Below are positions 57,709 to 60,639 of a DNA stretch of 64,000 bases, one piece after another; the stretch's first letter is position 1; each line of letters starts with the position of its first letter. The stretch lies in NCBI GenBank assembly GCA_944393215.1, contig CALXZL010000002.1:71239-135238 (forward strand), read 5' to 3'. This stretch comes from an uncultured Alphaproteobacteria bacterium. Its GTDB lineage: Bacteria; Pseudomonadota; Alphaproteobacteria; RF32; CAG-239. The position numbers and the translations under genes are program-made. The notes beneath the pieces were generated by a model. That model did no database searches and had not been told where the DNA came from. It saw nothing but the letters and a program-made list of their open reading frames with translations.

Positions 57709-59295
57709 TTAAGATAACATTTCCACCAGTTTTTCGGCACATTTGAGCCCGTCAACAGCGGCAGACATAATTCCGCCGGCATAACCGGCACCTTCACCGC
57801 AAGGAAACAAGCCTTTAATCGAGCTTTGCAAGGTTTCATCTCGATAAATGCGGATCGGAGAAGAACTACGGCTTTCCACACCGGTCATCACGGCGTCATA
57901 AGTGGCAAAGCCGTGCAGTTTTTTATCCATATCCACAATCGCCAAGCGCATGGTTTCAAGGATGTAGGGAGGCAAAACGGAAGCCATGTTTCCGAAAGTT
58001 ACCCCGGGGGTATAGCTAGGTTTGACCGAGCCTGCTTGTTTGGAATCTTTGTTTTTCAAGAAATCACCGACCAGTTGCGCCGGAGCATGATAGTTGCGTC
58101 CTCCGGCAACAAAGGCTTTTTCCTCGAGCTCACGTTGCCAATACATACCTTGCAGTGGATGAGAGCCTCCGAAATCTTGCGGTGTAACCCCGACCAAAAG
58201 CGCGGCATTGGCATTTTCTTTATTGCGGGCATGCACGCTCATCCCGTTAGTCACAACCCTATTCTTCTCGGAAGCTGCGGCAATCACTTCGCCACCGGGA
58301 CACATACAGAAGGTAAAGGCGGAACGACCGTTGGAAGCATGATAAGCCATTTTATAATCAGCGGCGCCAAGCTTAGAAGAAAATTTTCCGTATTGTGAAG
58401 CATTTATAAGATTTTGTTCATGTTCTACACGAACTCCGACCGCAAATGGTTTAGGCTCAATCACAAAGCCTAAGCGATAAAGCATTTCAAAAGTATCACG
58501 CGCACTGTGCCCAATCGCCAAGATAACGGAATCTGTGGCTTGCCCGTAAATATTGCCTTTACCGTCTCGAATTTTCAGTGCCGTAATTTGCTGATTTTTA
58601 ATAATAATATCTTCAAGTTTGTTTTCAAAACGATATTCTCCGCCCAAACTCTCAATTTTGTGGCGGATATTTTGCACCACACGCGCCAAAATATCGGTTC
58701 CGACATGAGGTTTGGCAAGATAAAGAATCTCCTCGGGAGCACCGGCAGAAACCAGCTCTTGCAACACCTTGGCAGTATATTTATCTTTTTTGATACCGCT
58801 CATCAGCTTGCCGTCAGAAAAAGTACCGGCGCCGCCTTCCCCAAATTGGACGTTAGATTCCGGATTAAGCTCACCTCCATGCCAAAAAGCCTGCACATCT
58901 TGTTGACGTTCCGGCACCGGACGACCGCGCTCAAAAATAATCGGTTTTAGTCCGGCTTCGGCCAGCGCAATTCCGGCAAGCATTCCGGCAGGTCCGCTCC
59001 CGATAATCACCGGTCGGAGGGGTGATTTTGCTTTGGGTAGAGCATATTTTTCCGTCTCTTCTATAGCAAATATATCTTTGTTATTACAAGAAGATAAAAA
59101 GCTTTGTTCATCTTTTACTTCAACATCAAAACCATAAACATAATGCACATCAGACTTGCGTCTGGCATCTATGGCTTGTTTGATGATTTTAAAAGACAAC
59201 CATGTCCCCGAATAACCGATTTCTTTTTTAACATATTCGGGCAAATCGGACAAAGAAACCGACAACGGCACTTTGATATTATTGATTCTGAGCAT
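57709..59295 (-). CDS. FAD/NAD-dependent oxidoreductase (COG2509-like)
   Basis: IGSGPAG, NVQFGEGGAGTFSDGKL, FCMCPGG, GEGAGYAGGIMSAAVDG. Confidence 0.9.
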   Translation of the reverse strand: MLRINNIKVPLSVSLSDLPEYVKKEIGYSGTWLSFKIIKQAIDARRKSDVHYVYGFDVEVKDEQSFLSSCNNKDIFAIEETEKYALPKAKSPLRPVIIGSGPAGMLAGIALAEAGLKPIIFERGRPVPERQQDVQAFWHGGELNPESNVQFGEGGAGTFSDGKLMSGIKKDKYTAKVLQELVSAGAPEEILYLAKPHVGTDILARVVQNIRHKIESLGGEYRFENKLEDIIIKNQQITALKIRDGKGNIYGQATDSVILAIGHSARDTFEMLYRLGFVIEPKPFAVGVRVEHEQNLINASQYGKFSSKLGAADYKMAYHASNGRSAFTFCMCPGGEVIAAASEKNRVVTNGMSVHARNKENANAALLVGVTPQDFGGSHPLQGMYWQRELEEKAFVAGGRNYHAPAQLVGDFLKNKDSKQAGSVKPSYTPGVTFGNMASVLPPYILETMRLAIVDMDKKLHGFATYDAVMTGVESRSSSPIRIYRDETLQSSIKGLFPCGEGAGYAGGIMSAAVDGLKCAEKLVEMLS

Positions 59296-59387
59296 GGATA
59301 TATCCTTCTTATGAAAAATTTTATCCGAATATAATCCAATTTTATCGGATATGCCACAAAAAAAAGGCAATAGTTAAAACTATTGCC

Positions 59388-59729
59388 TTAACCGAGCAGC
59401 AGTACAATTAAAAAGATAAGTGCGCTCACGCCCGTCATACCCAGAAAGAACTTCCAACTGGTAAAAGTTTTCCAAGTGAGGTAAATTCCGGCGACCAAAC
59501 AAAAAATACCGCCGCCCCATTCTAGAATAATTCCCAATATTTTAGGAAAAATCCACATCCATGAATCCTGAGAACACATCAGAATGGCATAAATTGACAA
59601 TCCAATAAGCGCCGGAACCCACAGATAATTGCATCTTAATGCACCGAGAGCAACTCCGATAAGCTGCAAATAAAAGGCGAGCATAAAGATGCAATAAATC
59701 AAACATAAAATGACACTAAATATTGCCAT
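59388..59729 (-). CDS. Small hydrophobic membrane protein (113 aa from ATG 59729; 146 aa if started at 59828)
   Basis: About 4 TM segments; terminator at 59359-59388; start ambiguous. Confidence 0.65.
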   Translation of the reverse strand: MAIFSVILCLIYCIFMLAFYLQLIGVALGALRCNYLWVPALIGLSIYAILMCSQDSWMWIFPKILGIILEWGGGIFCLVAGIYLTWKTFTSWKFFLGMTGVSALIFLIVLLLG

Positions 59730-59750
59730 ATTTTTTTGATTTAAAGCGCA

Positions 59751-59834
59751 GTATTGAGGCTGTTCGATAAAAAAATTATCTACCTGTTGCCACACGTGGC
59801 AAAATACCGCATGAAAAATAGCCTCCATAATAAT
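59751..59834 (-). repeat. Conserved leader, copy A
   Basis: 57-nt core 59751-59807 identical to 60132-60187 except A7 vs A6; shared GCCTCCATAATAAT beyond a variable spacer. Confidence 0.9.
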
Positions 59835-59850
59835 TTTTAGTCACAAAGAT

Positions 59851-59879
59851 ATTATAGCATAAAAAAAGAGCCCAAACAA
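59851..59879 (-). promoter_or_regulatory. Putative sigma70 promoter A
   Basis: TTGTTT-17 nt-TATAAT with extended TG. Confidence 0.65.
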
Positions 59880-59888
59880 GGCTCTTTT

Positions 59889-60110
59889 CTAGAAGATACA
59901 GCGGCACACAAGCCAAATAACAATAACAAAAATAAGAACAATACTCCAGCCCAGACCGAGGATGCTGAATATAACCCCCAGCCCTATGCATAACCAATAT
60001 CCAAGAAATGCTAATATGGAAATACAGATTAAGCATAGCCAAAGTTTCCAAAAAACGATCAGCAGAATAAGAGAAATAACCACTGCCGCTAAAATTTCAA
60101 ACCAGCCCAT
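59889..60110 (-). CDS. Very hydrophobic 73-aa membrane protein
   Basis: Almost entirely apolar, about 3 TM segments; followed by a terminator at 59861-59888. Confidence 0.6.
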   Translation of the reverse strand: MGWFEILAAVVISLILLIVFWKLWLCLICISILAFLGYWLCIGLGVIFSILGLGWSIVLIFVIVIWLVCRCIF

Positions 60111-60131
60111 AAGCCAAATTTTTTTAAATAA

Positions 60132-60213
60132 GTATTGAGGCTGTTCGATAAAAAATTATCTACCTGTTGCCACACGTGGCAAAATACAACAAAACAATCG
60201 CCTCCATAATAAT
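60132..60213 (-). repeat. Conserved leader, copy B
   Basis: Direct repeat of 59751-59834. Confidence 0.9.
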
Positions 60214-60228
60214 CATTAATCAGGAGGC

Positions 60229-60257
60229 ATTATAGAAAAAAGGCAAAAATTGGGCAA
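60229..60257 (-). promoter_or_regulatory. Putative sigma70 promoter B
   Basis: TTGCCC-17 nt-TATAAT. Confidence 0.65.
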
Positions 60258-60318
60258 GAAGGAAAATAAAACGCACATAACTTAATATTTTCCGTATTAG
60301 GATGCCATAAAAAGAAAT

Positions 60319-60639
60319 TTAGATTTGCATATTAAATATAGACTGATAAGCCTTTATTGCCGAATCACGAAAGGCAACAACCGTATCCAAAGCCACTTCG
60401 GCATTAGAAACGGCAAGAGCCACATCTTGCACGCTGGCTTTTCCTTGAATCCCGGCAATTGTGACTTGTTCGGCTTGATTCCCCAAATTTTGAGCTTCTT
60501 CGATTTTAGATTTAACCATATCGGAAAAAGAAGAACCTGTCGCTTGTACCGGCGTAGTTTCTTTGGCAGGAGTTTGCGCCCCTATTCTGCTGAGAGCGGC
60601 TTGATAAGCATTGAGAGCACTAGAAATATTACTAATCAC
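60319..60639 (-). CDS. fliE: Flagellar hook-basal body protein FliE
   Basis: SFSDMV, DV.LAV..AE..L....RD.AI.AYQ.I.NMQI; follows flgC. Confidence 0.9.
   Translation of the reverse strand: MISNISSALNAYQAALSRIGAQTPAKETTPVQATGSSFSDMVKSKIEEAQNLGNQAEQVTIAGIQGKASVQDVALAVSNAEVALDTVVAFRDSAIKAYQSIFNMQI

Follow-up and report, generated by a model that had tools for sequence, protein, structure and literature searches.

Two tandem units in the window (the whole 64,000-nucleotide stretch of DNA analysed, from the genome G000 of an uncultured gut alphaproteobacterium) share a repeated element that is probably a transcribed, structured 5′ untranslated leader acting in cis on small orphan membrane-protein genes without a Shine-Dalgarno (SD) sequence. 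Judged from comparison with related sequences, it is best read as a new, narrowly distributed structured cis-acting leader RNA. It adds a covariation-supported, well-delimited motif that Rfam lacks, in a group, the uncultured gut Alphaproteobacteria, that has almost no experimental RNA biology, although its narrow range limits its present importance.

Two tandem units with a common leader lie downstream of fliE

As read from the sequence, the minus-strand genes flgB (61517-61080), flgC (61065-60655), and fliE (60639-60319) are followed directly by two short units in tandem on the same strand. Each consists of a promoter, a leader of approximately 85 nt, an orphan hydrophobic open reading frame (ORF) without an SD sequence, and a terminator; this anatomy had been proposed in a preliminary description of the locus and was confirmed on the minus strand, to which the coordinates below refer unless stated otherwise. 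Unit B, next to fliE, starts with the promoter TTGCCC-17-TATAAT (60257-60229; 10/12 matches in the promoter scan), and the −10 box of the relatives occupies the same position. Its leader extends from a predicted start at ~60222 to 60111, with the whole of leader copy B at 60129-60215, and precedes the 73-aa hydrophobic ORF B (60110-59889), which has no SD sequence in the 20 nt upstream of its ATG. A terminator-like hairpin (GAGCC, 7-nt loop, GGCUC, then T7, with an A-run flank; 59885-59861), identified by direct reading and absent from the scan list, closes the unit. Flanked by an A-run and, on the opposite side, by a T-run, this hairpin region (59861-59889) could terminate bidirectionally. 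Relatives share 92-96% identity over the stretch comprising the unit B terminator and the unit A promoter. The promoter of unit A is an extended −10 element, TGCTATAAT (59859-59851); no −35 element was found, hence the promoter scan did not list it. Its leader runs from a predicted start at ~59844 to 59730, with the whole of leader copy A at 59748-59835 and, in the leader alignment, an A/U-rich linker without an SD sequence (59730-59747) between helix S2 (see below) and the ATG of the 113-aa ORF A (59729-59388). The terminator scan placed the end of the unit at 59389-59364. The spacer after ORF A (59296-59387), which includes the terminator and the start region of an FAD-protein gene, is 88-97% identical in most relatives. 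In several relatives (loci L012, L015, and L021), a conserved intergenic block, TTTTTGCYGGTTTCTTATTATTACGCTCATAAAAAAG, lies between fliE and the first promoter; it is absent from G000.

Both leaders contain ATTATTATGGAGGC, followed by a variable stretch of 13 nt (A) or 12 nt (B) and then by a core of 58 nt in A (59807-59750) and 57 nt in B (60187-60131). The cores had been described as 57 nt long and identical except for one homopolymer run; the identity held, the sole difference being T7 versus T6 on the minus strand, whereas the length of 57 nt applies to B and not to A. Likewise, the spacing between core and ATG, previously given as 22 nt, is 20 nt in both units. An identity of 57 nt in copies 380 nt apart is far beyond chance, and no leader copy beyond these two was found in the 1.72-Mb genome (38% G+C). 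The earlier observation that ORFs A and B are dissimilar was borne out, with a BLASTP E value of 0.31 marking them as unrelated. The palindrome TTGCCAC-AC-GTGGCAA is present in both copies, and the upstream ATG reads as had been reported, in frame with the gene in copy A, yielding a 146-aa ORF, and into 15 codons in copy B (ATG at 60207). The cores of G000 are identical to each other, whereas the two copies of the relative G006 differ, which suggests that the leader copies were homogenised within the G000 genome.

The leader was found in a single genus

Covariance-model searches over a sample of 151 genomes, searched twice, detected 13 leader copies within one genus of uncultured gut Alphaproteobacteria, where 11 of 13 species genomes carried them: G000 and 10 of the 12 other species. 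No convincing leader copy occurred in the 22 other genera of the family represented among the 151 genomes; rows in two genomes of other genera (G065 and G114) were located inside ORFs and are not leaders, and seven rows of model R3 in other genera (E 0.48-0.98) were taken as chance. When 61 related genomes were searched at the DNA level, a further five copies came to light, spread over four species of the genus to which G000 belongs, together with two chance matches of 18-21 nt. Furthermore, a pattern scan of 185,579 species genomes returned 106 stretches, 80 of which were scored by covariance model. Seven loci were strong, all from already-known genomes and two of them overlapping on one contig, and one weak extra row (L041) reached 27.1 bits. 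A stricter pattern run on JGI metagenome contigs gave two stretches and no covariance-model hit. At least half of the window's sampled words were contained in 11 public runs, several of which are chicken-gut metagenomes. The search for further copies that the preliminary description had proposed brought the number to 13, all inside one genus and with small membrane-protein genes downstream. In G008 (L010, reverse strand, ~620-715), the 5′ UTR of the first small-gene unit resembles a decayed leader (GUAGAAGAUUUUUCU ... GCCUUAAAAC); it lacks S2, and no covariance model detects it.

Each of the 13 copies follows a promoter and ends 16-21 nt before the start codon of a small hydrophobic ORF, the ORF belonging to an array located downstream of fliE. 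This spacing is constant and places the fold just outside the ribosome footprint. In the copies inspected, the −10 box is 14-28 nt upstream of the ATTATT segment. Three types of array were distinguished: one leader followed by a 68-aa gene and then a 117-aa gene (G012 and three species with the short form of the leader described below), two leaders (G000 and G006), and a leader solely before a 111- to 115-aa gene (G003, G008, G004, and G011). As for the two leaderless species, G002 has no such small genes after fliE, and the 113-aa gene has a distant homologue in G007 that is preceded by a plain UTR of ~45 nt, indicating that the leader is dispensable for the 113-aa gene family.

The leader is conserved as a nucleotide sequence

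The leader is 85-93% identical to its counterparts in relatives, level with flgC (79-89%) and above fliE (69-84%), and the downstream coding sequences show 72-88% identity or no nucleotide match. Against G003 and G008, identity is 90-93% for the leader and 75-76% for the FAD-protein gene, and no nucleotide match is detectable for the downstream ORF. Gauged by these identities, purifying selection was shown to be stronger on the leader than on the flanking genes. The preliminary description had placed the conservation at the nucleotide level, and the relatives support this, and with it structure, over any peptide: the upstream ATG is replaced by ATA, GTA, or GTG or is missing, the T-run differs by indels of 1-4 nt, and four species lack 39 nt. 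A conserved peptide with synonymous variation was looked for in the relatives and not found, and the reading of the repeat as a new cis-regulatory RNA stands. A leader peptide or extended coding region was thus rejected, because start, frame, and amino acids are not conserved across the 1- to 4-nt indels and the 39-nt loss, and so was a recent neutral duplicate, because the leader is kept nearly unchanged across the genus (13 copies, 11 genomes). Two candidate protein-binding sites were also discarded, a CsrA site because its GGA is lost in 5 of 13 copies and a sigma-54 promoter because its spacing is off and the site is unconserved.

Compensatory changes support a fold of the sense strand

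We propose that the universal core of the leader would consist of four pieces: a single-stranded 5′ segment, AUUAUU-N-(G/A)GAGGC (in the window ATTATT, then GGAGGC at 59826-59821 in copy A and 60205-60200 in copy B); a linker of ~10 nt containing AUUAUU (L1; 59820-59811 and 60199-60191); the 8-bp helix S2, GYRGUAUU/AAUACYRC; and GCCUC (59760-59756 and 60141-60137) directly 5′ of the S2 3′ strand. S2 pairs 59810-59803 with 59755-59748 in copy A, and 60190-60183 with 60136-60129 in copy B. It is common to all 13 copies, with variants in G012 (GUGGUAUU/AAUACUAC), G004 (GCAGUGUU/GGCACUGC), and G011 (GCAACGUU/AACGUUGC). The nine long-form copies carry two hairpins in the S2 loop, P2 (A, 59802-59787; B, 60182-60167) and P3 (A, 59780-59766; B, 60160-60147), which gives a three-way junction. 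In the four short-form copies (G010, G005, G001, and G009), the S2 loop is N+GCCUC alone: the central 39 model positions, with P2, P3, the palindrome, and a promoter-like TTGCCA-16-GATAAT, are replaced by 1 nt, the flanks are kept, and GAGGC, S2, and GCCUC are retained. As P2 and P3 are wholly lost in four species, the palindrome is ruled out as the core of the element. G010 is the closest relative of G000 in the set (94% identity in the FAD-protein gene and 88% in ORF A), whereas the long-form G004 and G011 are the most distant, so the short form would most simply be a deletion. Such natural minimal (hairpin and tail) and expanded (three-way junction) forms are handy for dissecting function.

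In alignment A4 of the 13 copies, which was fitted to the covariance model, 98.1% of 265 cells were paired and 11 of 24 pairs had changed on both sides. None of 500 shuffles reached any of five covariation measures, and slid controls paired 31.7-51.4% of cells. A structure-blind MAFFT alignment still paired 96.2% of cells, with 9 of 24 pairs covarying and the S2 counts unchanged. Compensatory pairs numbered 4/8 in S2, 6/6 in P2, and 1/5 in P3; the P2 arms read AAAUCA/UGAUUU in G004 and AUUUUA/UGAAAU in G011. When all 13 copies were given to RNAalifold, exactly S2 was returned as the sole helix kept. In 14 of the 265 cells, the sense strand forms a G-U or U-G wobble that would be an A-C mismatch on the opposite strand, which indicates that the structure belongs to the mRNA strand. 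Taken together, the comparative data show S2, P2, and P3 to fold, as predicted, on the sense strand. Most of the covariation came from four divergent copies (G004, G011, G012, and G006_B), implying few independent compensatory events. The minimum free energies of copies A and B were no better than those of shuffled sequence (sense z −0.24 and +0.29, not significant); the antisense-strand z values were −1.07 and −1.44.

The three-way junction proposed from the window alone thus stood in part. Its hairpins P2 (the palindrome) and P3 are backed by compensatory changes, whereas the GAGGC/GCCUC helix that had been thought to close it is invariant and crosses the covarying S2; the covariation analysis, which had been suggested as a check, supports a sense-strand fold with S2 as the junction-closing helix. 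A triple helix of L1 with S2 was considered and rejected, as L1 is unchanged where S2 covaries, and a hammerhead-like core is absent from the leader. In the P2 loop of G012 (L012), the innermost two palindrome positions are changed symmetrically, from CGUG to UGUA; a seventh P2 pair there would leave merely a 2-nt loop.

GAGGC and GCCUC may pair as a pseudoknot or as an alternative to S2

The possible pairing of GAGGC with GCCUC, here called S1, is invariant in 13/13 copies and crosses S2. As it never varies, its constancy is no proof that S1 pairs. Changes in the AAUAC segment are compensated in S2 and not in an extension of S1. We infer that the invariant SD-like GAGGC pairs with the anti-SD-like GCCUC, either as a loop-to-tail pseudoknot or as an alternative to S2. 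The gap between GCCUC and the S2 3′ strand is 0 nt, a tight geometry for a pseudoknot. When S1-closed and S2-closed nested folds were compared in the 10 of 13 copies that could be scored (in the three left out, the projected P3 loop was too short), the two lay at most 2.2 kcal/mol apart in seven copies. These were −14.2/−14.2, −14.9/−14.2, and −16.5/−16.1 kcal/mol (S1/S2) for long forms and −8.6/−7.6, −7.6/−7.7, −9.0/−6.8, and −7.1/−7.6 kcal/mol for short forms. In copy B, three outer S2 pairs are broken and S2 is weakened; S1 is consequently favoured there by 7.2 kcal/mol (−16.6 versus −9.4).

Transcription and translation signals

RNA-library contigs from three libraries of two studies covered leader A contiguously with ORF A. 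The first (59612-59860, 1 mismatch) reaches 16 nt upstream of the predicted start, the second (59676-59826) has 0 mismatches, and the third (59424-59798, 41 mismatches, depth 46) is from a relative. These contigs agree with a leader that forms part of the ORF A message; since DNA can occur in RNA libraries, they leave strand and transcription unproven. None fell on unit B, fliE, flgC, or the FAD-protein gene, and absent cover proves nothing. The third contig ends in Illumina adapter at 59798, inside the P2 5′ strand, a position that could mark the 5′ end of an RNA or a site of processing, or could be an artefact of the library.

None of the 13 downstream ORFs had GGAG, GAGG, or AGGA within 20 nt upstream of the ATG; by comparison, 435 of 898 long ORFs of the G000 genome had an SD core upstream, against a background of 7.5%. 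The sole SD-like sequence in the UTR is (G/A)GAGG of the leader, which lies 55-95 nt from the ATG and is therefore too far away for a normal SD sequence. The leader GGAGG may instead be a remote ribosome-loading (standby) site, hidden by S1 pairing. S2, or an outside factor, ligand, or condition, would compete with S1 and in this way tune the access of ribosomes or RNases at the open, A/U-rich start. If SD-like/anti-SD-like pairing proved to control SD-less initiation remotely, the leader would bear on how ribosomes are loaded onto such messages. The leader also points to the orphan small membrane proteins as regulated, expressed genes.

Alternative explanations

A riboswitch, in which a small molecule or ion would bind the junction or pseudoknot as its aptamer and be exported or channelled by the small membrane proteins, appears unlikely. 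Invariant unpaired nucleotides beside covarying helices, a position in the 5′ UTR ahead of membrane proteins, a possible pseudoknot topology, and a peripheral domain (P2 and P3) that can be lost, as is typical of aptamers, are consistent with it. Nevertheless, no expression platform was found: no terminator or U-tract follows S2, no helix covers the ATG, and linker and ATG are unpaired in the folds. Moreover, the range is very narrow (one genus), the pocket of the short form, a hairpin with a tail, is very small, none of the proteins matches a transporter family, and the leader has no Rfam match. Still more doubtful, in our judgment, is a bistable or pseudoknotted sensor RNA in which S1 against S2 would hide or expose the remote SD-like site and so switch translation of the SD-less ORFs, with a gut-specific ligand, ion, or temperature as the cue; if true, it would act in the manner of a riboswitch while dispensing with a conventional expression platform.

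The preliminary description had also raised type I toxin-like modules or a cassette system, for which no positive support was found. The ORFs would then be toxic membrane peptides, and the leader a target of an antisense or trans-acting small RNA with a standby site. Hydrophobic ORFs without SD sequences, in tandem arrays that differ in number and kind from one species to the next, a leader more conserved than the coding sequence, and an SD-like site far upstream of the start would all suit such modules. However, the scan listed no sigma-70-like promoter on the plus strand in 59200-60400 that could drive an antisense RNA, and the wobble pairs put the structure on the sense strand. Complementarity to the leader elsewhere in the genome was limited to 14-nt chance matches, a weak test given that small-RNA pairing can be short. 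The proteins, with 52-117 aa and 2-4 helices, are larger than typical type I toxins, and the locus is syntenic and vertically kept. We therefore give this explanation little credence.

Control by a leader peptide is highly improbable. It would operate through a 10-codon upstream ORF that begins with AUG or UUG 8-10 nt after GGAGG (59781-59813 in A; 60161-60193 in B) and ends at an invariant UAG before P3, such that its translation would melt S2 and P2. This ORF is intact in all seven long forms of the close clade, but its start is absent in the four short forms (ACG) and in G004 and displaced in G011, and its codon 2 varies among R, L, Q, and W exactly where S2 covaries, indicating that the constraint is on pairing and not on the peptide.

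A DNA-level element, with the 7+7-nt palindrome as the operator of a dimeric repressor or TTGCCA-16-GATAAT as a second promoter, is largely refuted and retains almost no probability: the scan did list the promoter-like sequence in both copies, and G012 did change its innermost two palindrome positions symmetrically, but G004 and G011 keep P2 pairing while losing the arm sequence, the −35, and the −10, which excludes operator and internal promoter, and four species that retain the rest of the leader lack the region altogether. The operator reading of the preliminary description accordingly falls. The sigma-70-like sequence itself, located on the minus strand within both leaders (59775-59802; 60155-60182), has disappeared from G004 and G011, does not occur in the short forms, and is probably a chance by-product of P2 and P3.

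Relation to known RNA leaders

An Rfam 15 scan at E values up to 10 returned six rows (E 0.23-7.7), all with less than half of the gathering score. The best of these, SraG (RF00082), scored 23.3 bits (gathering score, 50; E 0.5), far below threshold, and overlaps 59787-59889; it differs in lying on the plus strand, where it is driven by the unit B terminator hairpin. Those motifs of general motif-discovery surveys that are known to us are in Rfam, and the supplementary tables of such surveys may list the leader motif.

SAM-II (RF00521), SAM-V, and preQ1-II are SD-sequestering pseudoknot riboswitches of Proteobacteria, SAM-II being also alphaproteobacterial. Like them, the leader is a compact 5′-UTR RNA with a possible H-type pseudoknot, a purine-rich SD-like strand, and a CCUC-like strand. 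Unlike in these riboswitches, it is the 5′ strand that is SD-like, at a distance of 55-95 nt from the ATG, neither an Rfam match nor an expression platform was found, and the regulated genes would be orphan membrane proteins. The toxin mRNAs of tisB/IstR-1 and zorO/OrzO have leaders in which an upstream single-stranded standby site loads ribosomes. They resemble the present units in their small hydrophobic ORFs, often in tandem, and their long, conserved, structured leaders; here, however, the searches revealed no antitoxin RNA, the region around the start is open and not buried, the proteins are larger, and the chromosomal locus is syntenic and confined to a single genus. The leader of Escherichia coli rpsA is likewise SD-less, with conserved hairpins between A/U-rich single strands just upstream of the ribosome footprint, but it shares neither sequence nor structure with the leader described here and belongs to different genes, and no autoregulatory protein is evident in the present case.

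The encoded small proteins

Searches with ORFs A and B against Pfam, NCBIfam, PHROGs, and PADLOC matched no family, and family searches with the array neighbours in relatives gave sub-threshold rows only. The best Atlas score of ORF A was 0.88, under the lead level. Its AlphaFold model has four helices (pLDDT 73.8, pTM 0.39), and Foldseek found no match to it in the PDB below E 6. ORF A belongs to an orphan family of 111-117 aa, with identities down to 25-30% and with W37, P62, and K87 invariant. A homologue search with the 113-aa protein returned 21 clusters at 64% identity or more. The same search with the 73-aa protein returned a self-match only; relatives of 68-75 aa are present in the same array. 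The protein tree, with 11 rows (G005 and G002 were omitted as having no homologue), was poorly resolved, the sole supported split being G003 with G008 and G007 standing on a long branch. In four 146-aa strain variants (P0001, P0006, P0009, and P0010), gene callers ran ORF A through the leader. Over the leader and the N-terminal half of the protein, these variants match G000 exactly, but their C-terminal half resembles other species; this mosaic pattern suggests recombination within the ORF A gene.
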